Shown here piece after piece: positions 10,886 to 62,575 of a stretch of DNA of 64,000 nt (positions are counted from its first letter, which is position 1; each line of letters begins with the position of its first letter). The position numbers and the translations under genes are program-made. The notes below the pieces were generated by a model. That model had not been told where the DNA came from. It was given only the letters and a program-made list of their open reading frames with translations, and did not search any database. The stretch is from a virus. The DNA lies in the IMG/VR virus record IMGVR_UViG_3300050013_000065, positions 1 through 64,000 of that record. One strand, written 5' to 3'.

Positions 10886-12766
10886 TTGGTCATAGTGGAT
10901 AATCTGGACGAAATCAAAGAAAACCCGGCGGTTCTGAAAATCTACGGGCAGTACGTGCATGGGTTGAAAAAGGCTGGGAATCTGTATACCGGCTCGTGCC
11001 CTCTTCATCAGGATTCTCATCCGTCGTTTTCGGTTTACCCGGACATGCGTTGGACTTGCTTCTCTGGGGCGGACTGCGGGTCGGGGAACATTTTTCAGCT
11101 CATCGAGCGTGTAGATAAAATCAGTTTCCAAGAGGCCGTAGAAAAAGTGAAAATCGAGATAGGGCAACCAGACTCGTGGAAGAAGGACAAAGAACGTGTC
11201 GAGAGCGTATTCAAGCCCGTGTCCGAAAAGAAAGTCTACAAGACAATTCAACTGAGTCGTATTGCTTCTTTGGAAGAGGCTTTGAAGAACTCCCCAGAAG
11301 CTATCCATTATCTGGACACGCGGGGGATTACACTTGAGACTGCTCAACAGCTAAGACTTGGATTCGTCCAGAATCTGGGGTCCTTAGCGGGAGAAGAAGG
11401 AAAGGATATTGCCGACAAAGGCTGGCTGGCCTTTAACTACCTCGACGGCGATCTTGTCCGGCTAATCAAGTACCGAAGTCTAGTAAGGAAGCGACCGGGT
11501 GGCTTCGCCCGGCAGTTTGGCATGGAGACTGTTCTCTACGGGATCGAGGATATTGATCCTTTTGAGCCTATTTATCTAGTGTCCGGAGAGTTCGACCGGG
11601 CAGTAATGAAACAAGCCGGGTTTCGTGCGGTCAGCCTAGCCTCAGATACGCATAAACCAACTCCCGAACAAAAAGACCAGTTGATGACTGCGAGTATGAT
11701 AATCCTTGCCGGGGATACTGACACCGTCGGTTCCCAGACTATGGATCGTTTGTGGAAAGAGTTTGGAAACCACTCGTACAAACTAACTTGGCCAGACGGC
11801 TCCAAAGATGCCAACGATGTGTTTCTCAACGCCTGCGGACGCGACCTTTCAAAATTCAAGAATCTTGTAGACGAGTTAACGAGTAAGGCTAAGTCACAGC
11901 CGATGCCTTCTGTATATTCCTTGCAGGAAACTATGCGGTCCGGAGATGACGCGGTTCTCTCTGATCACCCAGATAGAATGCGCGCTCCGTGGCACGACGT
12001 GGACACAATGGTGAATATCATGCCGGGGGACGTGGTCGGAATCAATGCCACGAATAGTGGTATGGGCAAGAGCACTTTTGTGTTACAATGGACTTTGTAT
12101 AATGCCAGGAAGTACGGTCGGTCGTTTGTAAACTTCCAAGCCGAAATGCGTCCTGCTGAGATTGCTACAATGGTAACAGCGCAGGTTCTCAGGAAAGATA
12201 GAAATTTTCTGACCGGCTCTGATAAGAAACAGGCCGCGAATGAGTTGGAAGGCGTGGAATATTACGTGGGGTTTGATCCAGTTTTGAATGGCATCAACGC
12301 GGTCCTTGATCTACTTGAGGCTGCTATTAAACGTTTGTCGCCATATGGGGTCGTGTTGGATCACTTCCACCACCTGACCACGGGAATGAACAACGAGACG
12401 CAGGTGCAGACAGCGGCAATGACCCGGATCAAGCAGATAGCTGAGACCTACAAGGTTGTGTTCTTTAACGTGGGTCAGCCCCGGAAGGCAACGCAGCAGA
12501 CAAAGGGTAAGCAGATTCATCTGACAGATGCAAAAGGTTCCGGAGCTTGGGCGGACGCCTCAAACTCAGTGGTTACGATTCACCGAGAACTAAACAAAGC
12601 AGACGACCCCACGATGACTAAGGGCGTATACGAAGATCGTACGCTCGTCAAGTTACTGAAAGGTAGATCAATGGGAACCGGAAACTCGGCTTGCTATCTG
12701 ACATCGTTTGGTGAGTTCGCCAGCTTTGAGCAAATCGATACAAACCACGAAAGTTACGAAGAATAA
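10886..12766 (+). CDS. DNA primase-helicase (CHC2 Zn finger + TOPRIM + DnaB/SF4 helicase)
   Basis: CPLH..HPSF...C....C; SGEFD, AGDTD, KDAND; Walker A SGMGKS; VVLDH; KGSG. Confidence 0.93.
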   Translation: MVIVDNLDEIKENPAVLKIYGQYVHGLKKAGNLYTGSCPLHQDSHPSFSVYPDMRWTCFSGADCGSGNIFQLIERVDKISFQEAVEKVKIEIGQPDSWKKDKERVESVFKPVSEKKVYKTIQLSRIASLEEALKNSPEAIHYLDTRGITLETAQQLRLGFVQNLGSLAGEEGKDIADKGWLAFNYLDGDLVRLIKYRSLVRKRPGGFARQFGMETVLYGIEDIDPFEPIYLVSGEFDRAVMKQAGFRAVSLASDTHKPTPEQKDQLMTASMIILAGDTDTVGSQTMDRLWKEFGNHSYKLTWPDGSKDANDVFLNACGRDLSKFKNLVDELTSKAKSQPMPSVYSLQETMRSGDDAVLSDHPDRMRAPWHDVDTMVNIMPGDVVGINATNSGMGKSTFVLQWTLYNARKYGRSFVNFQAEMRPAEIATMVTAQVLRKDRNFLTGSDKKQAANELEGVEYYVGFDPVLNGINAVLDLLEAAIKRLSPYGVVLDHFHHLTTGMNNETQVQTAAMTRIKQIAETYKVVFFNVGQPRKATQQTKGKQIHLTDAKGSGAWADASNSVVTIHRELNKADDPTMTKGVYEDRTLVKLLKGRSMGTGNSACYLTSFGEFASFEQIDTNHESYEE

Positions 12767-13644
12767 TGACTAAAATTTGTTCGCTATGCCGCAAGGAAAA
12801 ATCTCTAGAGGATTTTCACCGGGACAGTCAAGGCAAGTACGGAAGAAAGTCTAAATGCAAGGACTGCATCGCACAATACATGCTGAGCAGAAAGAATATC
12901 CCCGGAGTGCGCGAGTCCATATATCGCAATAGCAGAGCATACGACCGCAGAAACCCAGAAGCTAGAATGGCAAATTCGGCAAGAGAAAGATCAAAAAGGA
13001 ACGGTACTCTTTGTACTATAGCTAAAAACGAAATAGTAATTCCTGACTTGTGCCCGATATTGGGCATTCCTCTCAAACGTGGAAATCGATCTTCACACGA
13101 TGACGCTCCTAGTTTGGATAGAATTATTCCCGAGGAGGGGTACGTAGCAGGCAACGTGAACGTAGTATCCTACCGGGCCAATCGTCTGAAAAATAATGGA
13201 ACGCCAGAGGAGCACCGTCTTATTGCCGCTTGGATGTCAAATTCAGGGTTTACAAGTCCAACCAAAAGTGAACAGATTTTAGAAAACTCCCAAAAGGAGA
13301 TGTTTAACGCCTCCCGACAACGGGCAAGGAGACTGGGTCTTAATTTTGGAATACAAATAGGAGACATAAAAATCCCACGCGTATGTCCTATATTAGGAAT
13401 TCCACTAGAACCAGGAAAGGGTAGAGGTAGCAGACACGAGGGATCTCCAACACTAGACAGGACTGATCCAACAAAGGGATACATTCAAGGAAACATTTCT
13501 GTTATTTCTTATCGGGCTAATCGCATCAAAAACGACGGCACCGCCGAGGAGCATTTAAAGATTGCGGATTGGATGGACAGTATGTTACAATCCAAAGTGT
13601 TGGATATGAACCATGAAGAGGAGGACCCAAATGGGTTTGAATGA
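12766..13644 (+). CDS. His-Me finger/HNH-type endonuclease with two tandem nuclease domains
   Basis: N-terminal CSLC..CKDC; two copies of CPILGIPL..SP(S/T)LDR..P.GY..GN..V.SYRAN..K. Confidence 0.85.
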   Translation: MTKICSLCRKEKSLEDFHRDSQGKYGRKSKCKDCIAQYMLSRKNIPGVRESIYRNSRAYDRRNPEARMANSARERSKRNGTLCTIAKNEIVIPDLCPILGIPLKRGNRSSHDDAPSLDRIIPEEGYVAGNVNVVSYRANRLKNNGTPEEHRLIAAWMSNSGFTSPTKSEQILENSQKEMFNASRQRARRLGLNFGIQIGDIKIPRVCPILGIPLEPGKGRGSRHEGSPTLDRTDPTKGYIQGNISVISYRANRIKNDGTAEEHLKIADWMDSMLQSKVLDMNHEEEDPNGFE

Positions 13645-48569: not shown

Positions 48570-49388
48570 CTAGGTTATCGTTTCTGCGTGTGTGCCAGAA
48601 ATAAGAAGAGGTTTGAAGATTTGTTCCGCATTAAAATCTGGGTATTTATCTCCTTTGGCAAGATTATCCCCAGACCAAAGCGGCTGAAGATTCAGGTAGT
48701 AGCAAGCCAAAACAACATGTTGACGCTCCCCCAAGTCATAGGCGGACAAGGGAATTATGTGGTCTATGTTCCATCGATCCTCCCCTATTCCCCAGTTCTC
48801 CCAAGTCATTCCAGTTTGGAATTTAGATTCAAGGTGCGCCTTTAGTTCTTCTATAGAGCATCCTAAGTCTCGAACAGCCGATCCAGTCTTCGTGTTCGAT
48901 TTAATTGCTTGGTTAAGGCGAGTACGTAAATCACAAGCGAGTTTATAGTTGAGGTCTTCTTCCTTCTTTTGTTTCTCAAACTCATTCCTATGTCTACGAT
49001 ATTCGGGACTTTTACTCTTCTCTCTTTTATTAGCTTTATGCTCTTCGCTGGTATATCGTTTTCTACTTTTTTCTTTAGATTCAGGAAGATTTCGATACGC
49101 GGTATTTCTAGCAGATATTTCTGGTTTTAGTTGAATATATCTGTTTGCGTGGTACTCAGAAATTCGTTGTTTATGGATTTCGTAATACTCGTGATTCTTC
49201 TGCGAAAATCTTGAGAAATATTCCGGGTCTTGTTTCTTTTCTCGACGAGTTTGGTTACGGCAATCTTTACACCAAGAGTCTAAGCCGTTTTTCTTATTTT
49301 TATTTGCCCCAAAACAATCTCTACTTTTTCTCTCTTTGCACTTAGAGCAGAGCGCCGAGGTAGCTATTTCCAAGAATTCTGTTTCCAT
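48570..49388 (-). CDS. HNH endonuclease
   Basis: LGCSIEELKAHLESKF..GMTWENWG..WNIDHIIPL...NLQPLW..DNLAKG. Confidence 0.9.
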   Translation of the reverse strand: METEFLEIATSALCSKCKERKSRDCFGANKNKKNGLDSWCKDCRNQTRREKKQDPEYFSRFSQKNHEYYEIHKQRISEYHANRYIQLKPEISARNTAYRNLPESKEKSRKRYTSEEHKANKREKSKSPEYRRHRNEFEKQKKEEDLNYKLACDLRTRLNQAIKSNTKTGSAVRDLGCSIEELKAHLESKFQTGMTWENWGIGEDRWNIDHIIPLSAYDLGERQHVVLACYYLNLQPLWSGDNLAKGDKYPDFNAEQIFKPLLISGTHAETIT

Positions 49389-49411: not shown

Positions 49412-50047
49412 TTACGAGATTGTTTCCGACCTCGTTCCCGGGGGTGTATTGGTCGGCCTGAAAATTGGATCTGCCACTACTTTTCCATTATTCAGGTAAA
49501 TAGCAACGATTCCCCCCGGCTCTACCAAAATACTCTTGTGGTCGTTATACAGCATACTTCCAACTTCATGGACTATGCTACTATGGGCAACCACAATAGT
49601 AGGAACTCCACATTTTAGAGCTATATCCACGGCCTCTGTGATGCAGGGCCTAATCCTACTTTTGAAGTTATTCAGCGATTCCCCGCCGGGTATATCTGTT
49701 GACGGGTGATCTATGAATACCTGTAATGCGGCTTCTGACTCTTTTGTTCTTAGTTTTCCGGAAAAATCCCCCACGTCAAGAGCGCGCAAACTTTCTGACC
49801 TATGTATGGGTAGTTTTGCCGATTTTCCTATCTCCTCAGCAGTTGTAGTGGCCCGGAGTCGGTCGGAACAAAATATATGGGATATTTCTACGGGTTCTAG
49901 AAGTTTGGCCACCATTTCCGCCTGTCGAATGCCGACACTATCTAAAGGCGGATTGCTATTGCCTCTAAAACATCCATCTGCATTGAGCGTAGTCCTCCCG
50001 TGCCTAACGACGTAACACAGAACATTTGTTTTATCCGCTAGTTGCAT
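49412..50047 (-). CDS. histidine phosphatase (phosphoglycerate mutase family)
   Basis: VRHG.T, SD.LRA..TA, PGGES, VVAH. Confidence 0.92.
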   Translation of the reverse strand: MQLADKTNVLCYVVRHGRTTLNADGCFRGNSNPPLDSVGIRQAEMVAKLLEPVEISHIFCSDRLRATTTAEEIGKSAKLPIHRSESLRALDVGDFSGKLRTKESEAALQVFIDHPSTDIPGGESLNNFKSRIRPCITEAVDIALKCGVPTIVVAHSSIVHEVGSMLYNDHKSILVEPGGIVAIYLNNGKVVADPIFRPTNTPPGTRSETIS

Positions 50048-50372
50048 TGCTGTCTCCAGAATTTACTGTCACGTCGGGACCAAACATAGTCTTCGTTGTT
50101 ACTCCGGCTGTAAAAGGACCCGGGCCTTGCTCTACTTCTGGGACTGGAAATTCGAACGAGATTCCCTCGTATTCGGCTTCCAACTCCTGGACAAATTCTC
50201 GGAGATCCGTGTGCTTGACGTAGGGAGATTTGCGGACCCACAGAAGCTCCACAGCAAATTTACGATAGTCTCTGGGGGCAGCGTCATTGCGAGCTAAGTC
50301 GCGGAGGGTAGAGTCGGGGAGGGGGTTAAGATGGCGGTACCCATCTGAAAAAGGATCGGCTATTTTTGGCAT
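50031..50372 (-). CDS. hypothetical protein
   Basis: GAGG RBS before MPKIAD. Confidence 0.6.
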   Translation of the reverse strand: MPKIADPFSDGYRHLNPLPDSTLRDLARNDAAPRDYRKFAVELLWVRKSPYVKHTDLREFVQELEAEYEGISFEFPVPEVEQGPGPFTAGVTTKTMFGPDVTVNSGDSNATSG

Positions 50373-50676
50373 TGTTCCTCTGGGTAGATACAAATCGCAG
50401 ACCGTAGTAGAAAGTTAAGATCGGACGTTGCCCGGTTGGAGTCGTAATCTGACTACGATAGTAGAGGTCATCTAAAATCTTGTCGGAGCGACCCAACCTG
50501 CCCAACCTGCCTCCTCGCTCATTCAGGGCTAGTGAACGATTGGATTGGCTGGTTCTCTTGCGGTCTGCATACGTCCATTATCTGGACAAACTTGGGAGGC
50601 CGGGACAGTTGAAAGGAGGAAGAAAGAACTGTCCCGGCAGGCTGTCCTATATTTATGAAGGAGGCGGACAGCCGAT

Positions 50677-50898
50677 CTAACGAACTCTGGTGTTCTTGTG
50701 TGCGTTACGAATGTGTTGGTGGAAATACGACCCGGGACTATCCGCTTGTTCAAGTCCGTCTATAAGTTCTTGCGGCACTTGGTGGTAGGCCACAGTTGCA
50801 CCATTCAGAACGGTAGTCAAGCGTTCTGTATCCGGGTCGTAGGTCGATCCTTCGTGAATCTGACTGCTCTTCTTCTTGAGTTTTAATGGGCGGTCCAT
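50677..50898 (-). CDS. KTSC-domain protein
   Basis: SSQI...YD..TE.L......Y..VP......L..ADS.GSYF...IR. Confidence 0.85.
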   Translation of the reverse strand: MDRPLKLKKKSSQIHEGSTYDPDTERLTTVLNGATVAYHQVPQELIDGLEQADSPGSYFHQHIRNAHKNTRVR

Positions 50899-51071
50899 TA
50901 CTTGCCTTTTGCGATCTTCTTCATGTTTTGGGCAAAGACGGCTTTCTTGGCCTCAGCGCCTCCGGCTTTCTTACCAGCCGCAATCTTCTTTCCGGTGGCC
51001 TTGCCGAAGGACCCTATCGTGCCCTTCTTCTCCATTTTCTTCGTAGCGTTCTGAATCCATTTTTCGGCCAT
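50898..51071 (-). CDS. small basic protein (57 aa, MAEKWIQNATKK...AVFAQNMKKIAKGK), not in the ORF track
   Basis: AAAGGAG RBS, own promoter, TAATG overlap with the KTSC gene. Confidence 0.75.
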   Translation of the reverse strand: MAEKWIQNATKKMEKKGTIGSFGKATGKKIAAGKKAGGAEAKKAVFAQNMKKIAKGK

Positions 51072-51094
51072 GTTGTCTCCTTTGATTTAAGAAC

Positions 51095-51123
51095 ATTGTA
51101 CTACAGTTTGGTGGGTTTGTCAA
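51095..51123 (-). promoter_or_regulatory. sigma70-type promoter
   Basis: TTGACA-N17-TACAAT. Confidence 0.8.
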
Positions 51124-51576
51124 CACTTTTACGGAATTTTTATCCAAAAACCAGGAGAGTACTCATAGACAACCCCTCGGTGTGCTAGGAGCGGTCGAAA
51201 ATCATCAGGAAACCTAACCAACTTGTCCATGAATTATTTCAACTTCCAAAAGAGATTAGCTACGTGCATCAAGCCGGGCTCCCCAAATCCAGACCATGTT
51301 TCTTTCGCAAAATCCGAACCGTTCATTCGAAATAGCACAAACTCGGCCAGAGTGTTTTCAGGAGGAGGAGACTTCCAATATTTAGTTAGTCCCTCTAAGT
51401 TTGGGGGAAACTCTGATTTTTCAACCACGTGTTTGTCCATTATTCGGACTCCTTCTTCGGAGTGATATTCCAGACCCATCCAGAATTGCAAGCAGCCAAG
51501 TGCTCCAAAGGAATCTGGTTGGGCGGGTAGATCACACCCTCTTTGTAGATTCTCGGAACTCCATCAGTTAGCCGCT

Positions 51577-51690
51577 TCATTTCTTCTTGGTCTTCTTTGC
51601 TTTCTTGGGCTTGGGTTTAGGTTTGGCTCCGTAGTACGTCGCGGTCGTGCTGGGCATTGATGGGCCGGTGGTTACTGAGGCGTTAGGCAT
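51577..51690 (-). CDS. 37-aa Lys-rich peptide MPNASVTTGPSMPSTTATYYGAKPKPKPKKAKKTKKK
   Basis: GAGGA RBS, ATGA overlap with the next ORF. Confidence 0.6.
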   Translation of the reverse strand: MPNASVTTGPSMPSTTATYYGAKPKPKPKKAKKTKKK

Positions 51691-51768
51691 TGGCGAAATC
51701 CTCACATGAGAGTTTGGGCTTCCGGGGACCGCGGTGAGGCGCGGCCCCCTTCAACCGTTTGTTCGAAC
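51688..51768 (-). promoter_or_regulatory. pseudoknot leader RNA, copy 1
   Basis: stem GGGGGCCGCG/CGCGGTCCCC, loop CCTCAC complementary to GTGAGG over the RBS. Confidence 0.6.
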
Positions 51769-51821
51769 ATAGTAGTATTATATCACACTTTCGTGCAATT
51801 GCAACAACTATTTTCGAATTT

Positions 51822-54800
51822 TTACGATGACGACGTTTCTGACTGCAAACGCTGCTTGTTGCGTCCATTATCTGGACGGGTCGATCATTTCTGTCGGCCT
51901 CATACGGTTTCGTTTTCCGTATGGTCGGACTGTTGCATACTCTTTCGAGTCTTCTTCGCTCAGTCTCTCACGGTCTCTTTCGAGTTCCGCCTCGTCACCA
52001 TTTCAGGGTTCGAGTCAATCAGAAGAAGTTTAGGCTCCGCCGCTGCTTTAACGGAGTGTCATCGTGCTTCCCGGCACATGTTACTCATTCTAAACATCTT
52101 AGAACGGAGTAGATCGTTTCCGTCTACTTCATACGGTTTTTGTTTCCCGTATGCTCGGACTATTGCATGTCCATTATCTGGACCCGCTTCGCTTAGTCTC
52201 TCAGCCTGCTTTCGCTTGGCCCTCCTTGGCATTTCAGCGTCGGAGTCAATCAGAAGTGGTTTATACTGCGCCCGTATGTTAACGCAGTGTGTTGGTGTAG
52301 CGCACATTGTAAGAAACCCATCCGCCAATTTGGCGAGCTGGATCGCTCACGCTTCCCTGCTCAGGAGCACTCTGAATAAACAGCTTATAGTTCTTCGAGC
52401 CGTCATTCGGGTTCTTCCCGCGTATGTTACTCATTCTAAACATCTTAGAACGGAGTAGATCGTTTCCGTCTACTTCATGCAGTTACTATTTCTGCATGTC
52501 CAGACTATTGCATCGTCCATTATCTGGACGCCACTTCGCTTAGTCGTTCACGGTCTCTTTCGAGTTCCGCCTCGTCACCATTTCAGGGTTCGAGTCAATC
52601 AGAAGTGGTTTTCCTACGCAGATTACGCTGCGAGGTCCCCGGAGTTAAGGAACACAGAGAAGATAGCATCGTCGCCGAAAATGTAACTATTGTAATACGT
52701 ATTGCCTGAAATAGTCACAGTGGGGGCAGTGGATGTCTGTTTGAAAGTAACACCCGCGAACGAGATGGTATCCTCATTCTTAGGCAGTTCAAACAGCATG
52801 TTGCGCATCTCGTCGCTTCTCTTGATGATGTCCGACAATCCGTTGAAGGAGGTGTCGTTCAAAACATCTCTGACAACATTAGGTAATTTTGTTAATCGGA
52901 GTTTTTACTTCCATCCGTGGTGTTCCGAGATTAGAACGCAGGGTGTTGCCTCGTTCAATAAATCCCCGGTCTCCCATGGGTGACCCACTCCGTACAGGTC
53001 AGTCACCTGATCTGTTTTCTTACAGTCGCCTGTAAGTTCGGACTCTATCTTCGCCGTCCATTTTTCGGACGGGTCCGGCGTATTAGTCTCTACGGGTTTG
53101 CCTTTGCGATTCAATTCTTTACAAAGAGAAATAATCTCATCTCTGCGCTCCATGCTTCCGAATCTATTCAGTTGCACATATTCTAACAACAGAGCCGCTT
53201 GTCTTTGTTTTATCTTCAGATGAGGTATTATGCCCTTCAACAGAACTTCTTTGCTTTCGTTTCCGAGAGCAACCCAGGTCCATTGGTTCTTCCACTTTTT
53301 CTTAGCCATAGGTCTGAAATAAACGGTACCCCCAAATTTCTCCAATAACCAATCTAGAGGTTCTTTGGTGGTAAGACTCATGGATATTCGGGAGTCCCGG
53401 TGTATGTAGGGCTTTCCCTTTGTGGATATAGAACGACCGCGAGATTTTGTTTTGTGAGACGTGGCCGCTATGTGGCCTTCTCCGTCTATTAGTCCCGCTG
53501 CGTACGCAAAATCTACTTCTGAAATAATTGAATCAGGCATCTTCCCTCGGTATTGTCTGGAATTTCACTACAACAAGTCTATCACAAACGACAGAAATTG
53601 TCAACCAGAGATTCACCGATTTAGCCAGATTTTATATCCACCCTATATACGGCTTACGCCGCTTGGTGATAGTTTTGATAATGGATAATTCCACCAAATT
53701 TGTTGTCCACGAGAGGACGAGCGTTGACGCTTACCAGCGACTGAGCAGCAGACCGGATGTTATTCGCGGTCAGATACGAGCCGTTCGCAAGCTGGATGTT
53801 GACCAAGCTATCGACCGCAACAGCCGAGTCAGCGGTAAGCTGGACCAAGGAGTTGAGGGTGAGGGCTAGGCGGTAGTTTAGTTCGTTCCTTTTTGTTACC
53901 GTCCAGATAACGGGCGGGGCTGGTCATTTCTGCCAGCCTCTATACATCGCTGCATAGAGCGGACTATCGCATCACCCCGAAGGGCGTCCTCTTGTTTAGT
54001 CTCTACTGCTGCCCAGCCGAAGCCTGCTTGCAGTCTGTTGTCTCCTTGCGGAGAGTTCCAGCTTAATTAAAGAGGATTTATACTGGCCCATTGGGTTAAG
54101 CCAGATTCTGCAATAAACCCGGGTCATCTATCGCGACATCCAACGCTAGGTCAGATGAATTGATGAAGTCGGCATATTGCCCGCAATGTGTTTAGGCAAC
54201 CAACATCACTGTTGGTGCGCTCTCGCAGTCGCCTACGAGGTCAGACTCTATCATCTGTCCGTTATCCGGACAGGCAACCGTATTAGTCGTTAGGGATATT
54301 CCGCGATGATTTAGTACTCGAAATTTTTTGATAACTTCTCGGGTCTCATCATCAGAAAGATTTCTTCGGTTTCGAAACCAGTCAAGTAGGAGAATAGCTT
54401 GCTCTCGTTTAGTAACCATATAAGGCAAAATAGCTAAGAGAGTAGTTTCCAAGAATCGGGTCGGTAGTACCCAATTTCCTAGTTCACGATGTTCTCTTTT
54501 GGAAGAGCTTACGCTGCCGCCAAACTTTTCAAGAAGGAAATCGAACACTCTCATGTCCGTATTGGGAAGCTGAATCTTGGGGTCGAAAGAACGTTTTGAT
54601 TCATACAAACTCAAAGTTCCTTCGGCGTCTAAAATTCCGGCTAAATATTGATAGTCGTCCTTGCTCGCTGTAACTTCTTCTACATCTCTGTGCATTCTTT
54701 TTACTGGCTCAAAAAATCCGTTCCTAAAAGAAACGTAATCAGACAGTTCTTTTCTAGCATCAGAATTGTGGTAGCTTCTCCCCCCCAATCCAATAAATTG

Positions 54801-56494
54801 AACTATCGTTTCTCCTTGTCTCCGTTTCAACTTCAGAAGAGGGGAAACCATTTTCAATAGATTAAGTTGGTGTTCAGAATTACTCACATACCAATGATGA
54901 TTTGGTTTACGATTTGGACGCTTATCCTGTGTCGTGTAAAATTGTCCTCCGAAAGTATCGGATAGCCATTTTACCGTAGGCAGGTGCGTGGTCGCTACTT
55001 CTACCGTTGCATCATAGTTAATGTAGTTTTGTTCGTGCGGGTGGACTGCTATTCCCAAAGAACCATCGCCGTCTATTAAACCGGCTAGGTAGTTCCATCT
55101 TGCGGGGCTTATTTTTGTCTTATCTTTCAAACGGGTTTCCTCGGTATTGTCTACTCCAACTACTATACTACTACACCAAGTAGTATTTTGTCAAGCAGAT
55201 GTTCACCGATTTAGGCTGCTTTTTCGACCACCGATATATTCATGGTCGCTACGATCTTGTTGCTGGACTCGCTGATGGGCGATCCAACGGTTCCCTCAGC
55301 AGCCTGATTTAGGTTTGCTGCGAGCAGAGCGTAGGTGAAGACTTTTGTGTTTAGGCCGTCAGTATCTCTACTGGGGCGCTCTCATCGTCGCCGATGAGAA
55401 CAGGCTGTATCTTCGGTAGGTTGAGATAACGAATTACATCGCACAACTTCTTGCGGAGTTCCCTATTCGGAGAACTAGGAAGACGAACAAGCTCCAAAGC
55501 GATCTTGGCTTGCGGTCTCTTGATTCTTAGGTAGGGAAGAACTTGGAGGAGGAATTGTTCCCGCCTTTCTTTTCCCGTCAACTCCCAAGTATAAAACTCC
55601 TCGGTGTTGTCGTGGGCCTTTGTCGTATGAAACCAACCTCCGTAGAGATCGAGAAACATTTGGACAAGGGGGCGGTAGTTGTTTCCCATCCGAATTCGTA
55701 GCATCGGTTTATTGTCTGGGGTGAAGGCGGCAGATACGCAACCTTCTCCGTCCATAATTCCGGCTATATACGCATGTGTTAGTTTATCTTCAACTTTTCC
55801 GTCTAGCGTCTCAGTCGTTAGGCATTCCCTGTTCTTCATTCCGCGAATCGTTTCCATAAGCTCTTGGCGTCTGGAAGGATTCTGTGCGTCTCCCAAGCTA
55901 TAGAACTCCTGAAGTACGAGAGCCTCAGCTTTTTTGATGCGAAGATACGGAAGAATGTATGAGAGGAATTCGGGGGCAAACTTTTTGCCGTTGAGGTTCC
56001 ACTGGTACCAAACCTGCCCTTTCTTAGGGGTGTGTTTGGTAAAGAAGCCACCGAAAGTTCTAACCAGCCATTTGACTATCGGCAGATTAGTATTACTCAA
56101 AACAATGCGTGGTTGGTAGTTGGTGCAGGGGCCGTTCGGTTTAACTGTTGGTTTGTAAATCGAAAAGCAACCCTCGGCGTCCATCAGTCCGGCTACGTAT
56201 GCTTTTGTTCGTTCTCTCATAGGGTCTTTGCTCGGTATTGTCTAGTTGACAAGATAAGAATACCACACCAGCATTCTATTGTCAATAGGGTTCCACCGAT
56301 ATAGCTAGATTTTAATTCAGCACTATTCAATACTGAATCTGGTTTCCCTGACGGAGCGGCAGCGGACGCTGCTTCGTCATGCTAAGGAAGGGTGTTTGTG
56401 CCTTCAGGTTAGGAATTGCTTCACGTTCATAGTGAATAGCTACGAGGTTGGGCAAAGCGCCCGAAGTCACAATTGATGCAGGTGAGTAACTCAT
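51822..56494 (-). CDS. major capsid protein, N4-gp56-like, 327 aa, 8 exons: 56494-56332, 55341-55242, 54183-54099, 53887-53681, 52883-52648, 52420-52282, 52074-52051, 51851-51822
   Basis: exons sum to 984 nt with no internal stop; motifs LP..GNQIQF, EG, ATIGQYAD, AIDDP, IIHP....D, AGV.F, IFG.DA, DP.RQ.G.WV.Y; AAAGGAG RBS; directly downstream of the scaffold gene. Confidence 0.92.
51852..52050 (-). mobile_element. group I intron 7 (199 nt, ORF-less)
   Basis: P1 CTCCGT/GCGGAG; in-frame TAA start; compensated P7 GACTG/CAGTC; ends in G. Confidence 0.88.
52075..52281 (-). mobile_element. group I intron 6 (207 nt, ORF-less)
   Basis: P1 ACTGCGT/GCGCAGT; in-frame TAA start; GAGACTA and AATAGTCC; ends in G. 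Confidence 0.88.
52421..52647 (-). mobile_element. group I intron 5 (227 nt, ORF-less)
   Basis: P1 GTTCCT/GGGGAC; ACGACTA and AATAGTCT; ends in G; restores CT+C codon. Confidence 0.88.
52884..53680 (-). mobile_element. group I intron 4 (797 nt) with LAGLIDADG ORF; terminal nucleotide A
   Basis: P1 ATCCAT/GTGGAT; P10 TAGG/CCTA; GAGACTA and AAGATAGAGTCC. Confidence 0.85.
52905..53540 (-). CDS. single-motif LAGLIDADG homing endonuclease (intron 4)
   Basis: YAAGLIDGEG; FGG, IPHLKIK..QA. Confidence 0.92.
   Translation of the reverse strand: MPDSIISEVDFAYAAGLIDGEGHIAATSHKTKSRGRSISTKGKPYIHRDSRISMSLTTKEPLDWLLEKFGGTVYFRPMAKKKWKNQWTWVALGNESKEVLLKGIIPHLKIKQRQAALLLEYVQLNRFGSMERRDEIISLCKELNRKGKPVETNTPDPSEKWTAKIESELTGDCKKTDQVTDLYGVGHPWETGDLLNEATPCVLISEHHGWK
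53888..54098 (-). mobile_element. group I intron 3 (211 nt, ORF-less)
   Basis: P1 CTGGCT/GGCCAG; starts with in-frame TAA; GAGACTA and GATAGTCC; ends in G. Confidence 0.88.
54184..55241 (-). mobile_element. group I intron 2 (1058 nt) with LAGLIDADG ORF
   Basis: P1 CGACCAT/GTGGTCG; P3 GCAGCC/GGTTGC; ACGACTA and GATAGAGTCT; ends in G. Confidence 0.9.
54192..55130 (-). CDS. double-motif LAGLIDADG homing endonuclease (intron 2)
   Basis: YLAGLIDGDG and YLAGILDAEG. Confidence 0.93.
   Translation of the reverse strand: MKDKTKISPARWNYLAGLIDGDGSLGIAVHPHEQNYINYDATVEVATTHLPTVKWLSDTFGGQFYTTQDKRPNRKPNHHWYVSNSEHQLNLLKMVSPLLKLKRRQGETIVQFIGLGGRSYHNSDARKELSDYVSFRNGFFEPVKRMHRDVEEVTASKDDYQYLAGILDAEGTLSLYESKRSFDPKIQLPNTDMRVFDFLLEKFGGSVSSSKREHRELGNWVLPTRFLETTLLAILPYMVTKREQAILLLDWFRNRRNLSDDETREVIKKFRVLNHRGISLTTNTVACPDNGQMIESDLVGDCESAPTVMLVA
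55342..56331 (-). mobile_element. group I intron 1 (990 nt) with LAGLIDADG ORF
   Basis: P1 ATTCAGT/GCTGAAT with U.G; P3 TCTAGC/GCTAGA; ACGACTG and AAGATACAGCC core strands; ends in G. Confidence 0.9.
55351..56220 (-). CDS. double-motif LAGLIDADG homing endonuclease (intron 1)
   Basis: YVAGLMDAEG and YIAGIMDGEG; LPYLRIK twice. Confidence 0.93.
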   Translation of the reverse strand: MRERTKAYVAGLMDAEGCFSIYKPTVKPNGPCTNYQPRIVLSNTNLPIVKWLVRTFGGFFTKHTPKKGQVWYQWNLNGKKFAPEFLSYILPYLRIKKAEALVLQEFYSLGDAQNPSRRQELMETIRGMKNRECLTTETLDGKVEDKLTHAYIAGIMDGEGCVSAAFTPDNKPMLRIRMGNNYRPLVQMFLDLYGGWFHTTKAHDNTEEFYTWELTGKERREQFLLQVLPYLRIKRPQAKIALELVRLPSSPNRELRKKLCDVIRYLNLPKIQPVLIGDDESAPVEILTA

Positions 56495-56521: not shown

Positions 56522-57697
56522 TTAGCGCCGACTTTGAGCACGTGCCCGACGAATAGCATTGAGGGTGTTCGCAACTTCTTCGTCTGTCATGTTCTCAAAA
56601 TCCTCGGCTGAGGGTGCGTTCGGAGACTCCGGAGGTTTGACGGGTGTTACGTCATTCCTGCCAATTCCTAGTGCCGCTCTCGGGCGCGTAACCTGACTTA
56701 CAATCCGTGAGTCGGGACGCGGCGCAGGTGCCGGTTCGTGTTGAACCGCTACCGGCGGAGGGGGTTCCACCGTTTCCGGTGAAGGTGTTTTGGGTTGCCT
56801 TGGTGCCTGAATCATCAAACCATCGTTGTTCAGGTCTTGGAAGGCTTCCTCAAGATTTTCGGCTGTGTAGTTTCCGGTGGAGAGTAGATTATTGAATACC
56901 GCTTCTTCATCTCCCTTTCGGATTGATTCACCGAGTTTGAACTTCGCTAGCCACTGAAGTAGCAGGTTGAAGTTCTGAAAATTTGTGTCCGCATAATAGT
57001 CGGGGTTATTCGCCAAGAAGGTTTTATTTGCCTGCTCGGCAGTAAGCTGATTGGCCGCGTACGATCCTTGCTTTGCTCCCTGCTGGGCGAGGTTCAGGAC
57101 TTGGTCCATAGTCACCCCGCGAGTTTTTTGGAGTAAGAAGTCGTTGGCGGCTGCTGGATCTGACTCCCACAAAGTCCGGTATTCAAAAATCTCGTCTGCG
57201 GTGAGTTGCCGGACAGGAGACGGCTGAGGGGTCTGTGTTTGTGCTACTGGCTTCGCGGGAATAGCTCCGAACTTGATCTTGGCATTCTGCTCCCGAATCT
57301 TCTTGGTAGCATTTGCCTGAGCCTTTAGAACTTCCAGAATCAACTTGTTCTTGGTAGCTCCTTTGTAGACTTGGGCGCTTCCCGCGCAACCTACGACCGA
57401 ACCAACCCACACTCCTTTGTCTTTACTCAGGACTAGTTGGGTACCATCTTCGAGGTCCATTGTTTCTGGTTCTTCTGGTTCCTCGGGGGGTGGGGGCGGA
57501 CCTGCTACAGGAGGAGTCTCGATAATTTCCGGGTCTAGGTTTTCCTGAGATGTGAGAACTGGATCTTGGTCATTAATATCTTCGTCGAGGTTGGGAAGAT
57601 CGGGCATATTCCAATCTACGTTGTTTGCGAATGGGTCGGGGCTTCCGTCAGAGTTCAGGAGCCAGGGGTCAGATACAGGCTTACTCATGTTGTTCAT
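56522..57697 (-). CDS. putative capsid scaffolding protein
   Basis: acidic Pro-rich N-terminus, helical middle, C-terminal FENMTDEE; immediately upstream of the capsid gene. Confidence 0.7.
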   Translation of the reverse strand: MNNMSKPVSDPWLLNSDGSPDPFANNVDWNMPDLPNLDEDINDQDPVLTSQENLDPEIIETPPVAGPPPPPEEPEEPETMDLEDGTQLVLSKDKGVWVGSVVGCAGSAQVYKGATKNKLILEVLKAQANATKKIREQNAKIKFGAIPAKPVAQTQTPQPSPVRQLTADEIFEYRTLWESDPAAANDFLLQKTRGVTMDQVLNLAQQGAKQGSYAANQLTAEQANKTFLANNPDYYADTNFQNFNLLLQWLAKFKLGESIRKGDEEAVFNNLLSTGNYTAENLEEAFQDLNNDGLMIQAPRQPKTPSPETVEPPPPVAVQHEPAPAPRPDSRIVSQVTRPRAALGIGRNDVTPVKPPESPNAPSAEDFENMTDEEVANTLNAIRRARAQSRR

Positions 57698-58575: not shown

Positions 58576-59361
58576 TTAGTAGTCGTCATCCCTCCAATCG
58601 TCGTAGTCGTACTCTGGCTCGTTTTCTTCCTCTAGTTTTTCCGGAGGGATGATGTCGGTTCTCACACTCCACTCCGGCCCAGAAAAGATTTTCTCTAACG
58701 CTTTCTCAGGGTTCTTGAGGGCTTTGCGGTATTCCCGAACGCCCACAAAAAGTTTATTGATCTGGTCGTCTGAGAGAGCGTCCAGACCTTCCGCCGGGTA
58801 CGCGTAGCCCCCGATAGACTTTCTTTCGTCCTCTACCTTTTGGTAAAGTTCTTCTTGTGTATAGGAGGGGGTGAACTCTTCTTCCGAGTTTTGGGATGTG
58901 GGAAATTGCGTTATTCTCCCGTCCGGCCAGAATCTTGTGCCCGCAGAAGACCATCTATTAAACGAAGGCTTTGCGCGCCATTCCGCGTAATCTTTGTCTT
59001 CCGGGAGGAAAATTCTTTGGCAGACAGTACAGATTCCAACAGCCGCACCCGTATCCAAAGTGTGCCAGACGATGCTCGTCCTTCCAAAGGTATCTTGCAT
59101 TTCGCTTAGAGGATTACAGCCAGCAACGTGGGGGCAGTTGTCTTGCTCGTCTTTCTTGTAACGCTCTTGTCTTTCTCGTAATTCTTTCGCTAGTTTTCTA
59201 AACGTAGATTCACGAGTTTCTTCTTCCAGGAGCGCCTGCGCTTTTCTCTTGAATTCTTTCAGAAAATCCTCTAGTGCGGAAAGAAGAGGCTGTAACAAAT
59301 CTTCTAACTTTTGGGCCATCGTGTCTCCTGCATCAATCCGATGCCTCGGGGGTTTGTCCAT
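58576..59361 (-). CDS. hypothetical protein with Cys/His domain (paralogue of 45643-46251)
   Basis: CPHVAG..IVWH..GICTVC. Confidence 0.7.
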   Translation of the reverse strand: MDKPPRHRIDAGDTMAQKLEDLLQPLLSALEDFLKEFKRKAQALLEEETRESTFRKLAKELRERQERYKKDEQDNCPHVAGCNPLSEMQDTFGRTSIVWHTLDTGAAVGICTVCQRIFLPEDKDYAEWRAKPSFNRWSSAGTRFWPDGRITQFPTSQNSEEEFTPSYTQEELYQKVEDERKSIGGYAYPAEGLDALSDDQINKLFVGVREYRKALKNPEKALEKIFSGPEWSVRTDIIPPEKLEEENEPEYDYDDWRDDDY

Positions 59362-60376
59362 TATCTGGACGGTTTAGTTGGGTGTCTATCCAATCGGCTA
59401 TTTGGCGGTGTTCGGCGGCGGTGCCCACGTTCTTGATTCTGTTTGCTCGCCAACTGATTACCGCAACATTTCCGGGAACGTATCCGAGTTCGGGGATGAT
59501 CTTGTCTAGAGTCGGCGAACTGTCTTGCATCTTTCCAAGACCGGGCCTGATAGGTATTCCGAGAATGGGACAAATACTGGGAATGAGAAAATCCTCTTTT
59601 GTGATAGAGAACGGAAATCCACCTCTCTTTGCCCGCCCTTTCGCGCTAGCGGTAAGCCGGTACAAATGCTTTTTAACAGCCGGAGTTGTCTCAAATACAA
59701 AAGAAGAAATACCTTCGATCCAGTTGGCAATCAGCCGGTGTTCTTTAGCCGTCCCGTCAGTCTTTAAAGTATTCGCCCGGTAGCTTATTACTGCGACATT
59801 TTCCCGAATGTATCCCAACTCAGGAACAATTCTATCCAAACTTGGAGATTCATCGTGATGAACTCCGGTCCCCCGTTCTAACGGTATCCCCAGAATAGGG
59901 CACAAGCGGGGAATGACCACATCTTCCTCCACCAAAGAAAAGGGTATATTATTCTCTTTGGCGCGGTTTTTAGCGGCATAAAAAATAGAGTACGAGGGTC
60001 TCTTCCGTCGCTTATCTTTCTGTTCTTCTAGAATGCGAGGCTTATTTTCCTCGTAAAAATCTTTACTTCTCGCAATATTTTTATCTCGGTTTATGACGTG
60101 ACGAGATCGACGATATTGCTTTATTTCTTCTGAGTGGGTTTCGTTATACGCTTTTTCTGCTTTGCGAATAGAGTCTCTATTTTTTAGATTATATTCTCGA
60201 TTTTTAGCGAGTATTTCTTCTTTGTTCTCCGCGTAGTACTCTCTTCTTCTCCGGGAAAAGCAGGATTTACAGTCGTTTCGAAACCCATCTTTCTTGCTTA
60301 AGTCTTTGTAAAACTCTGTTAACGGTTTAACTTCGCCGCACTTAGAGCAGCGTTTCATCATGGCTTCTTCTGTCAT
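59333..60376 (-). CDS. His-Me finger/HNH-type endonuclease with two tandem nuclease domains
   Basis: CSKC..CKSC; two CPILGIP...SP.LD.I.PELGY...NVAVIS.RAN..K domains; start placed after the AGGA RBS. Confidence 0.87.
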   Translation of the reverse strand: MTEEAMMKRCSKCGEVKPLTEFYKDLSKKDGFRNDCKSCFSRRRREYYAENKEEILAKNREYNLKNRDSIRKAEKAYNETHSEEIKQYRRSRHVINRDKNIARSKDFYEENKPRILEEQKDKRRKRPSYSIFYAAKNRAKENNIPFSLVEEDVVIPRLCPILGIPLERGTGVHHDESPSLDRIVPELGYIRENVAVISYRANTLKTDGTAKEHRLIANWIEGISSFVFETTPAVKKHLYRLTASAKGRAKRGGFPFSITKEDFLIPSICPILGIPIRPGLGKMQDSSPTLDKIIPELGYVPGNVAVISWRANRIKNVGTAAEHRQIADWIDTQLNRPDNGQTPEASD

Positions 60377-60452
60377 TTGGCTCATCCTGAATATGAGGTA
60401 GGGCTTTGGGGACGATGATTCAGGCACCGACCCCTCTGCCGTTAGTTCGAAC
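60374..60452 (-). promoter_or_regulatory. pseudoknot leader RNA, copy 2
   Basis: stem GGGGTCGGTG/CATCGTCCCC, loop CCTGAAT complementary to ATTCAGG over the RBS. Confidence 0.6.
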
Positions 60453-60496: not shown

Positions 60497-62575
60497 TTAT
60501 AGATTCCCGCCGAATCCGGAACTACCTGTGTTTGGCTGGCCTGTTAATACATCTGGCTCAACGGCTCGTTTGAATGATTCGCGCAGCACGTCACGCGCGC
60601 TCCGGGCAATATTTTCGCTGTCTGCTTGTTCGGCTTGTAGTTGTGCCTTCTGCGCCAACAGAGCCTGTTGCTGCTGGAACTTGACTTGCATTGCCCCACT
60701 TTGACTCTTCTGCTGTTGGCGTTGTAGGTCTTCTGGGGTCATATCGACGATTACATCGTTCTGGTTACGGAACTCAGAGGCTTCGAACCACATCCTACAG
60801 ATTTCGTTTACGTCTATCTTTTTACCTTCCATAGCTAGCTGTTCCACCACGGAGGGATTGGCCAAGAATTGACTTAGGAGAGGAAGACCCTGTGACATGT
60901 TTCTCCTCGTAGTCATTTTGCTCCCGGCCAATACGGCGAACTTCACCTTGGCATTGAGGACCGAAACAAGATCGCCCCCATTTTGCACGTACTCGTGTTT
61001 TAGTTCATCCGAAAGGATAAATTCCAACTGCGAATAGGGCAACATCATCTGGTTCATTTCAGAAACGTCATACAAATAAGGCACCAGCACCTGATTAGCC
61101 AGTTTATCGATACAATCGGAGATGATATTTGACGCGCCCTGTCCGAGTAGTGAAGCTCCGGCGGAGGATCGGGCGAGGTTAGAGTGCCCAGCCGACCCAG
61201 CATTTCCCTGAGAGGTAATTGGGTTAGCGCCCGACACAGAATCCACCCTCTGCTGAGACATGGCAAAGAGCTGGTTGGCTTCTTGTACTGGATCTCCGAA
61301 CTTCAGAGGTTGTAGATCGCCTTGGGCGTCCACTTCGATCATTTTGTTGGGGCCGATGCGGATGCTTTGTGTCGGGACCGACTTTCCTTTTACACGAACC
61401 ATAGGAGCGTTCAACTTCAGGTTCGCGATGTTCATCATCAGGTTTGTAATACCGGCTTGGACACGCTGTTCTGTGCCGATCAGCCGACCAAGACCGATAG
61501 ACCAGAAAGCTCCGGGCTGGTCCCACCAACCGATACTCAGGAACGGGATTTTACCGTAGGCGTTCTGTCCGTTGTAGATGACCACCTTTTTCTGGATCAC
61601 TACGATTAGGGTTTTGTTGTCCCACCGTTCGAGGACTTCCAGAGGTTGCTGGAAAGGATCGACCGTGGTAGCTTCCCACGGAGATTCCGCGCGCGCGTCC
61701 CACAAAGGATTGCGTCCGCCTTCTTGCTGGGGATTGGATTCGACGGGTTCCTTCGGGGGGAGAAACAACTCAAGCATCTTCTCGCGAGATGGAATATCGT
61801 AGCCTTCACGGTCGCGCAGCTTGTCAATATCGTCCCAGGTCATATACCGGCGGCGGACAATATATTTAGCTTTGCGGATGTCTGGGACTTCGAGACCTGG
61901 GTCCACCAGAATTTCCCGAAGATTGACTATGTGCTCAAAAGTAGGTCTGTCGATTACTTCTTCGATCTCTTCTACTTCGAGTTCGTCATCAGATATTGAG
62001 GTCTCAGGAGCGCCGGGAATAGTGCTTGGAATTTTGACAACTGGATTCTTCCGCTTGACGATCTTTCGAGTCTTGGTGTATTTTTCCCACCCTTCGGCGA
62101 AAATGGCTGTTCCGAACAGTAGACAGTTCATCAAACCAAGACGGAGTTCTTCTCGGAAGTTGATGTCTTCCAGTTGATAGCCGAGAAGGGCCGACACGGC
62201 GCGCGCACACTGCGCTGAGGTTCCGCTCCGTTCTTGAACCATAAAAGGGGGATTTTCGTAGAACAATCCGGCCAAAAGCTGGGGGTTGATGCCGTTGACC
62301 GCCGTAGCCACCGTGAAGAAATTTACCGAAGAAGCTTCAATTGAGGTACCCGGCCAGAAGTTCGGGGCATAAATCGAAGTATAGAGGTCTCGGGAAGAAA
62401 CCCAGGCCATTATCCAGCTTTTTCTCTGCTCATCGGATTCTGCCCTCTCCGTATCTTGGACTACGAGAGCAAGAGACGCGGGGTCTCCGAAAGTCCCGGT
62501 ATGCAGAAACTCTAACGCTTCGTCTTTTGTTATGTCCTGGTGCGGGTCGCGGACTGGTTCTGGAAGCTGGCTCAT
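60497..62575 (-). CDS. portal protein (P22/T7-like podovirus type)
   Basis: 692 aa; LLFGTAI, EILVDP, VLERW, YGKIPF, FWSIGLG.LI...Q, Q-rich barrel C-terminus. Confidence 0.85.
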   Translation of the reverse strand: MSQLPEPVRDPHQDITKDEALEFLHTGTFGDPASLALVVQDTERAESDEQRKSWIMAWVSSRDLYTSIYAPNFWPGTSIEASSVNFFTVATAVNGINPQLLAGLFYENPPFMVQERSGTSAQCARAVSALLGYQLEDINFREELRLGLMNCLLFGTAIFAEGWEKYTKTRKIVKRKNPVVKIPSTIPGAPETSISDDELEVEEIEEVIDRPTFEHIVNLREILVDPGLEVPDIRKAKYIVRRRYMTWDDIDKLRDREGYDIPSREKMLELFLPPKEPVESNPQQEGGRNPLWDARAESPWEATTVDPFQQPLEVLERWDNKTLIVVIQKKVVIYNGQNAYGKIPFLSIGWWDQPGAFWSIGLGRLIGTEQRVQAGITNLMMNIANLKLNAPMVRVKGKSVPTQSIRIGPNKMIEVDAQGDLQPLKFGDPVQEANQLFAMSQQRVDSVSGANPITSQGNAGSAGHSNLARSSAGASLLGQGASNIISDCIDKLANQVLVPYLYDVSEMNQMMLPYSQLEFILSDELKHEYVQNGGDLVSVLNAKVKFAVLAGSKMTTRRNMSQGLPLLSQFLANPSVVEQLAMEGKKIDVNEICRMWFEASEFRNQNDVIVDMTPEDLQRQQQKSQSGAMQVKFQQQQALLAQKAQLQAEQADSENIARSARDVLRESFKRAVEPDVLTGQPNTGSSGFGGNL

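Follow-up and report, generated by a model that had tools for sequence, protein, structure and literature searches.

The DNA examined here is the first 64,000 nucleotides (nt) of IMG/VR virus record IMGVR_UViG_3300050013_000065; this stretch, referred to as the window, is part of a 75.5-kb viral record estimated to be 70% complete. Its minus strand carries, at positions 51822-56494, a major capsid protein (MCP) gene in eight exons and seven introns, the exons amounting to 21% of the locus. An initial annotation of this DNA had proposed such an arrangement, with an intron share of about 79%, and had remarked on the absence of a capsid frame; indeed, no capsid-like open reading frame (ORF) was found between 50.5 and 58 kb, only short frames and three minus-strand ORFs with LAGLIDADG motifs. 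The exons were compared with P0003, an uninterrupted protein of 327 amino acids (aa) that is the closest homologue of the joined product. P0003 is a library protein from a 1227-nt contig, which may be a metatranscript, and it served in the profile searches as a 95%-identical stand-in for the window MCP. In gene order, the exons are:

56332..56494 (minus strand): exon 1, 163 nt, aa 1-54 plus 1 nt, with the ATG at 56494; matches P0003 residues 1-55
55242..55341 (minus strand): exon 2, 100 nt
54099..54183 (minus strand): exon 3, 85 nt; 100% match to P0003 residues 89-116
53681..53887 (minus strand): exon 4, 207 nt
52648..52883 (minus strand): exon 5, 236 nt
52282..52420 (minus strand): exon 6, 139 nt
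52051..52074 (minus strand): exon 7, a 24-nt micro-exon encoding PGSTMTLR; 8/8 identical to P0003 residues 311-318
51822..51851 (minus strand): exon 8, 30 nt with the stop codon, encoding RLQSETSSS*; 9/9 identical to the P0003 C-terminus

Rebuilt from the sequence, the eight exons join into 984 nt, or 327 aa plus a stop, without an internal stop or frameshift. Their lengths are exactly those first proposed, and the codon phases at the junctions (1,2,0,0,2,0,0) were recovered, again without adjustment. Alignment to uninterrupted relatives had been suggested as a check on this structure: the joined protein is identical to P0003 at 311 of 327 positions (95%) with zero gaps, and it shares 69-81% identity with the other full-length homologues (326-330 aa). 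When the window was searched with P0003 by tblastn, the same exon blocks were found independently. When exon 5 by itself served as a protein query, 95 longer proteins were returned, 41 of them 326-330 aa long and several named at source as N4-gp56 family major capsid protein, along with many fragments of 140-290 aa that are often labelled hypothetical or unnamed. The eight-exon structure is confirmed as correct to the nucleotide.

As to the identity of the product, P0003 matches phrog_1357, a major head protein family (E=1e-15), and aligns to TIGR04387 over residues 12-198 with 39.9 bits (E=3e-10), a score below the NCBIfam equivalog cut-off of 60 bits. The initial assignment to the N4-gp56 family is thus upheld as to relatedness and not as to membership, and the MCP appears to be a distant relative of that family rather than a member at the NCBI cut-off. 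An AlphaFold model of the MCP, built on a shallow alignment of 41 sequences, is poor (pLDDT, the predicted local distance difference test score, 50); the best PDB matches of this low-confidence model by Foldseek (template-modelling score ~0.3) are capsid proteins of phage N4, Moo19, B2 and other tailed phages, with N4 capsid chains at the top. A profile search of PDB sequences gave no match for the MCP. The best explanation is a predicted HK97-type fold.

The joined coding sequence was also compared with three intron-less alleles. Synonymous divergence (dS) is ~1.5-1.7 and the ratio of nonsynonymous to synonymous divergence (dN/dS) is 0.04-0.05, values that point to strong purifying selection on the joined exons. 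Such a low ratio indicates that the eight pieces evolve as one constrained frame, and hence that the inserts must leave the RNA. The same comparison bears on whether the locus might be a decaying capsid pseudogene whose working counterpart lies in the missing part of the genome, as the 70% completeness of the record would allow. Against this stand the open frame across all 984 nt, a dN/dS of 0.04 at near-saturated synonymous divergence, and the canonical position of the gene after a portal gene (60497-62575) and a proline-/acidic-rich scaffold-like gene (56522-57697). No second capsid homologue is present in the 75-kb record, and relatives on contigs of 90-110 kb likewise have a single, interrupted capsid gene. 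We reject a pseudogene, which we regard as the least probable of the explanations considered in this work.

Group I anatomy of the seven inserts

All seven inserts show the elements of a group I ribozyme in the expected order: guide sequence, P3 5' strand, P4-P6, P7 5' strand, P3 3' strand, P8, P7 3' strand and then P9 hairpins. We sorted them into class A (introns 3, 5, 6 and 7; 199-227 nt, ORF-less) and class B (introns 1, 2 and 4; a UCGGUG/ACCGA P4 helix and LAGLIDADG ORFs). Scores are given for Rfam model RF00028 and for R1, a covariance model made from three class A introns; every P1 helix listed includes a U.G pair.

55342..56331 (minus strand): intron 1, 990 nt, class B, with a LAGLIDADG ORF, ending in G; guide 56321-56315, P1 AUUCAGU/GCUGAAU, P3 UCUAGC/GCUAGA, P7 5' strand 55819-55808 in mid-ORF, P7 3' strand 55411-55401
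55351..56220 (minus strand): ORF of intron 1, 289 aa, double-motif LAGLIDADG; PF00961 35.3 bits (cut-off 23.1), phrog_5046 E=3e-41
54184..55241 (minus strand): intron 2, 1058 nt, class B, with an ORF in the P6 region, ending in G; RF00028 17.7 bits; guide 55231-55225, P1 CGACCAU/GUGGUCG, P7 5' strand 54291-54280, P8 54273-54255, P7 3' strand 54252-54242
54192..55130 (minus strand): ORF of intron 2, 312 aa, double-motif LAGLIDADG; PF00961 25.4 bits (cut-off 23.1), phrog_5046 E=7e-34
53888..54098 (minus strand): intron 3, 211 nt, class A, ORF-less, ending in G; R1 171 bits; P1 CUGGCU/GGCCAG (read directly), P3 CCUCUU/AAGAGG
52884..53680 (minus strand): intron 4, 797 nt, class B, with an ORF, ending in A; RF00028 27.1 bits, E=9e-4; guide 53641-53635, P1 UAUCCAU/GUGGAUA, P7 5' strand 53091-53080, P8 53072-53054, P7 3' strand 53049-53039
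52905..53540 (minus strand): ORF of intron 4, 211 aa, single-motif LAGLIDADG-type (AGLIDGEGH); phrog_5046 E=2.5e-19, Pfam 14-15 bits, below cut-off
52421..52647 (minus strand): intron 5, 227 nt, class A, ORF-less, with an extra P2 hairpin, ending in G; R1 157 bits; P1 GUUCCU/GGGGAC, P3 CCACUUC/GAAGUGG
52075..52281 (minus strand): intron 6, 207 nt, class A, ORF-less, ending in G; R1 224 bits (model training sequence); P1 ACUGCGU/GCGCAGU
51852..52050 (minus strand): intron 7, 199 nt, class A, ORF-less, ending in G; R1 218 bits (model training sequence); P1 CUCCGU/GCGGAG

The splice-site features first read from this DNA held on re-examination. In all seven cases the 5' exon ends in U, which pairs with a G at the end of a P1 helix of 6-7 base pairs (bp). 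The P7 strands, which had been described in every intron, are present and correctly placed in seven of seven, the 5' strand reading GACUA or GACUG and the 3' strand UAGUC, CAGUC or CAGCC; intron 7, with its GACUG/CAGUC pairing, shows a compensatory change when set against introns 3, 5 and 6. Six introns (1, 2, 3, 5, 6 and 7) terminate in G, with intron 4 as the sole exception.

The three intron ORFs are LAGLIDADG genes encoding putative homing endonucleases, and they are interwoven with the ribozymes. In introns 2 and 4 the ORF begins in the P6 region and extends into the 3' core, and in intron 1 the P7 5' and P3 3' strands (55819-55802) lie inside the ORF with one endonuclease domain encoded on either side. 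Sequence is also shared among the introns. The hairpin GUCCAGAUAAUGGAC forms P8 in introns 6 and 5 (52169-52183 and 52515-52529) and a 3' peripheral stem in intron 7 (51866-51880), and near-copies of it at 54255-54273 and 53054-53072 are the P8 elements of introns 2 and 4. Introns 5, 6 and 7 are 70-78% identical overall in a mosaic pattern, the 3' halves of introns 5 and 6 being 86% identical. Each unspliced intron presents an in-frame stop after 0-10 codons: UAA lies right at the 5' splice site of introns 3, 6 and 7 (54096-54098, 52279-52281 and 52048-52050), and UGA one codon into intron 1 (56327-56329).

We then used relatives of the locus, namely 61 related viral contigs in which insertion sites were located by a protein-guided junction search, as a source of covariation. 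In the window, R1 recovered the four class A copies, and in 49 related loci it gave 83 matches, every one on the gene strand; all 83 fall inside the capsid gene, and this gene accounts for 19% of the searched DNA. With both intron profiles, matches over the whole 75-kb record were confined to 51853-56329. Among 36 class A introns fitted to R1, 94.9% of the cells in the proposed helices are paired, against 33-42% in slid controls, and double changes occur at 42 of 49 pairs. The P5, P6 and P7 pairs are absent from the search model; nonetheless the P7 pseudoknot is 100% paired. For class B, a structure-blind MAFFT alignment of 36 ORF-less introns gave 87.0% paired cells against 32-44% in slid controls, with double changes at 41 of 47 pairs. 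The G-C pair of the guanosine pocket in P7 is invariant (36/36 in class A, 36/36 in class B, and all seven introns of the window), and the pair flanking the pocket covaries between G-C and A-U.

The pairing of guide and exon behaves in the same manner. Among 97 junctions in the relatives, 86 follow T and 74 of the introns end in G; a P1 helix of at least 6 bp can be formed by 52% of these introns, compared with 14% when exon tails are paired with introns of other sites. Guide and exon covary both between and within sites (ACUCCCU/GGGGAGU vs ACACCCU/GGGGUGU; UAUCCAU/GUGGAUA vs CAUCCAU/GUGGAUG; GGCAU/GUGCC vs GGUGU/GCACC). A chance origin of the splice-site and P1 pattern is excluded. By anatomy and covariation, the identification of all seven inserts as group I introns is supported.

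Other kinds of intervening element were considered and set aside. Inteins do not fit inserts that lie in three codon phases, run into stops within 0-10 codons and have ORFs with no Hint domain. Group II introns are incompatible with a U before the 5' junction and a G at the intron's end, with four inserts of ~200 nt and with LAGLIDADG ORFs, and no group II Rfam match was obtained. Translational bypassing was likewise rejected.

Splicing and competing explanations

The locus was found in sequencing runs from peat and permafrost. Contigs from three metatranscriptomes join exons exactly at 53887/54099, 54183/55242 and 55341/56332, that is, across introns 3, 2 and 1; exon 5 is also joined to the start of exon 6, across intron 5, in RNA contigs via a loose end. 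The joined RNA contigs have a depth of 20-153 compared with 0-26 in depth bins over the introns, and the probable source DNA run has a flat depth of ~100-170 and none of these joints. Stretches of the window that are uncovered in RNA runs were not counted as evidence. The RNA contigs are far nearer the window than are the intron-less DNA alleles L003, L004 and L021 (~79% identical). Their variant letters form a mosaic: exons 1-2 resemble those of the intron-bearing relative L001 (16/17 positions), exon 4 is identical to the window and exon 5 resembles that of L030/L032, which suggests that the RNA strain is another recombinant. One DNA haplotype with the exon-5 variants of the RNA contigs carries an intron at site 548. 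From these contigs, splicing of this locus in vivo appears likely.

We consider, with a probability of roughly 0.92, that the locus is the phage's single MCP gene, colonised by seven mobile group I introns that fall into two related structural classes. In the mechanism that we propose, a late transcript would run through the whole 4.7-kb locus, and ribosomes entering an unspliced intron would stop within 0-10 codons, before the ribozyme. For each intron, an outside guanosine would first attack the bond that follows the U paired with G in P1, and the 5' exon released in this way would then attack after the last nucleotide of the intron; these two transesterifications per intron would produce the 984-nt mRNA.

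Several observations weigh against this interpretation. A search with RF00028, suggested with the initial annotation as a check, returned nothing in the window at the gathering score of 50 bits: none of the seven introns attains it, the best scores being those of introns 4 (27.1) and 2 (17.7), and the four small introns gave no match. We read these low scores as a limit of the model, because one model covers a very diverse class. P7 of intron 1 has one A.C mismatch adjoining the guanosine pocket, which is present in relatives too. Over the exons that were compared, the joined RNA contigs are ~3-5% divergent from the window; they may be transcripts of intron-less strains, DNA alleles of that type existing among the relatives. 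In the RNA contig linking exon 4 to exon 5, the last letter of exon 4 is C, so that this contig cannot be a product of the window's intron 4. Short-read contigs break in the stretches common to introns 5-7, so that the presence of seven introns in one genome rests on the assembly together with even depth. Finally, according to the textbook mechanism the terminal A of intron 4, an intron whose guanosine pocket looks normal, should cripple exon ligation.

The contig breaks raise the question of whether the record merges co-occurring strains, each genome having only some of the introns and the whole being stitched across repeated intron sequence such as the 86%-identical 3' halves of introns 5 and 6. 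The same DNA run does hold several strains with different intron sets, among them the second haplotype with an intron at site 548. However, one 13-kb contig of that run agrees with the window at every position across introns 1-3 and over part of exon 4. Overlapping pieces at a depth of ~96-146 extend from intron 4 to exon 5, from intron 6 across exon 6 into the last part of intron 5, and from intron 7 through exon 8. The tandem arrangement is moreover repeated in independent samples: relative L041 has an intron pair around the same 24-nt exon, L042-L044, from three other samples, have the same exon pattern, and L051 has eight introns on a 106-kb contig. A merger of strains is accordingly very improbable in our judgement.

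The terminal A of intron 4 concerns a junction that is well fixed. The 3' splice site reads AAAAUUA/CCUAAU (52884-52890) and is set by an invariant His-Pro, by the 7-bp P1 and by a 4-bp P10 (UAGG with CCUA); there is no alternative in-frame junction that ends in G, and no G within 13 nt upstream. The three other distinct introns at site 555 (L005, L017 and L034) all end in A like intron 4, and at site 218 four of the eight distinct introns in relatives (L026, L038, L040 and L048) do so, while copies with a terminal G also occur there; all of these A-ending introns bear ORFs. The P7 strands of the A-ending introns are the same as those of G-ending copies, and no compensating change was found. 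No relevant publication came from a search of the literature for natural group I introns with a terminal A. The terminal A of intron 4 is at present unexplained; conserved as it is, it would, if functional, touch a textbook rule for group I introns.

It could be that at least one insert, most likely intron 4, no longer self-splices and needs a helper, either its own LAGLIDADG protein acting as a maturase or a host factor, which would render capsid output conditional. LAGLIDADG maturases are established for organellar group I introns, and the A ending shared by intron 4, its three orthologues and half of the site-218 introns, with an unchanged P7 G-C and nothing visible to compensate, would fit such a loss, as would the A.C mismatch in P7 of intron 1. 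On the other hand, the terminal A has been kept in diverged copies, in apparently viable genomes and with otherwise intact cores, which argues that the arrangement works, in whatever manner. We think a dependence on helpers unlikely, though less so than the merger of strains.

For group I introns that splice and spread as proposed above, we tentatively entertain a two-part extension, at somewhat less than an even chance: that there is a natural lineage of introns, of which intron 4, the orthologues of intron 4 and the A-ending half of the introns at site 218 would be examples, which ligates exons with a terminal A in place of the near-universal G and with a normal pocket, and that the ORF-less introns multiply within the gene by guide-directed reverse splicing into similar sites a few dozen nt distant. 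To our knowledge, mobility by reverse splicing has been shown mainly in the laboratory. If this reading is true, the phage population would be a natural record of that mobility pathway.

Insertion sites, mobility and known systems

The MCP genes of the relatives carry from 0 to 8 introns at no fewer than 27 well-defined sites, and the largest set, one above that of the window, belongs to L051 (5800-9400; sites 64, 163, 218, 263, 744, 791, 832 and ~904). Eleven relatives are intron-less (L003, L004, L021, L022, L046, L047, L050, L052, L055, L058 and L059), and their empty sites are precise. Depending on the relative, the intron at site 263 either is ORF-less and ~200 nt long or contains an ORF and measures 1058-1312 nt. 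Shared 5' hexamers were found for 17 pairs of insertion sites, compared with 5.6 +/- 2.4 for random U positions (P ~4e-4), and sites 930 and 954, which flank the 24-nt exon, share ACACUGCGU in L041.

This pattern of presence and absence appears to be that of selfish mobile elements rather than of a built-in regulator. The suggestion that splicing could act as a timing gate on capsid production is unsupported; we reject it on the ground that close relatives vary freely in how many introns they have, from 0 to 8, and in where these lie. We infer instead that the introns spread by homing plus co-conversion, and by guide-directed insertion into look-alike sites. The three endonucleases would cut intron-less alleles in mixed infection, whereupon the introns would be copied in, and the ORF-less introns would spread by co-conversion or by reverse splicing into sites close by whose 5' flank is similar. 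On this account the introns would be selfish passengers, tolerated through good splicing, and not a regulatory device. With its 27 or more sites, some of them duplicated and some occupied by introns both with and without an ORF, and with its recombinant introns, the hot spot constitutes a natural data set on a question of long standing, the spread of endonuclease-less introns.

Some inserts in the relatives are of other kinds. Inserts of 46-59 nt, too small for a ribozyme core, occur near nt 890 of the coding sequence in L009, L010, L013-L015 and L041-L044 (46 nt), L020 (56 nt) and L028 and L029 (59 nt); the window has none. Relative L030 (347-1567) has a 1209-nt insert near codon 34 with two intron-model matches (1143-1336 and 1396-1593) and an unreliable junction call, and this insert may consist of tandem or nested introns.

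Among 50,697 GenBank phage records there was no match to the window by DNA or by exon-5 protein, and thus no sequenced cultured relative there. Capsid genes with introns are nevertheless known from other phages. In the Zeta group of crAss-like phages, four spacers divide the MCP gene into five fragments, and three of these spacers encode group I intron endonuclease domains (Yutin et al. 2021, PMC7886860). The two cases have in common an MCP gene repeatedly interrupted by endonuclease-bearing group I introns and known from metagenomics. They differ in that the window's gene is a third shorter and has seven introns where the Zeta gene has four spacers, four of these introns being tiny and ORF-less, and in its exons of 24 and 30 nt; furthermore, the window phage shows no alternative genetic code, and its introns are in one gene rather than genome-wide. 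Mycobacteriophage LittleE has a capsid-gene group I intron with a LAGLIDADG-type ORF whose splicing was proven by reverse transcription-PCR (Pope et al. 2013, PMC3706429, where a Tuc2009 capsid intron is also cited). That result implies that a capsid gene can be spliced efficiently enough to supply hundreds of capsid subunits. The likeness lies in a group I intron with a LAGLIDADG-type ORF in the major capsid gene; however, LittleE has one intron with its ORF on the opposite strand, and here there are seven, known from sequence, with sense-strand ORFs that overlap the ribozyme core.

The Jug jumbo phages carry small (~206 nt) group I introns, on average 18.5 per genome, and metatranscriptome reads confirmed splicing for about half of them (PMC12880540). 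As here, many compact ORF-less group I introns fragment essential genes. In the Jug phages, though, whose genomes measure 360-400 kb, many genes are affected and each holds two or three introns, compared with seven in one 984-nt gene of a phage of ~100 kb. The Twort orf142 gene reportedly has three introns. Fungal mitochondrial cox1 is the classic group I hot spot, with dozens of sites, LAGLIDADG endonucleases, ORF-less derivatives and very short exons. It resembles the MCP gene in being one conserved, highly expressed gene with many alternative insertion sites across a population, but cox1 belongs to an organellar genome with uniparental inheritance, in contrast to a lytic-type phage population recombining in co-infection.

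The view that DNA-metabolism genes house most phage introns is out of date, since capsid introns have been published (PMC3706429, PMC7886860). Multi-intron phage capsid genes were therefore already known, and the window is an extreme case of them, with the most introns in one phage gene among the published cases compared. The A-terminal lineage and the pattern of site duplication could be the parts that are truly new. Gene callers miss the MCP gene wholly, with the consequence that in marker surveys of phages from peat and soil this clade will be undercounted or misplaced. Production of the most abundant protein of the virion would depend on seven ribozyme reactions and on exons down to 24 nt, which sets a high bar for the efficiency and order of splicing inside a bacterium.

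Two further features of the surrounding DNA were noted. Downstream of the MCP gene, at 50000-51800 on the minus strand, there are short ORFs only, such as a lysine-rich frame of 57 aa at 50898-51071, with no intron-profile match; contigs of two RNA libraries (X15 and X17) cover 50072-51006. Between phage genes there are also three free-standing ORFs of HNH / endonuclease VII-like type, at 12766-13644 on the plus strand and at 48570-49388 and 59333-60427 on the minus strand. The last of these sits near the capsid locus, between the portal and scaffold-like genes, and all three could be further homing endonucleases.

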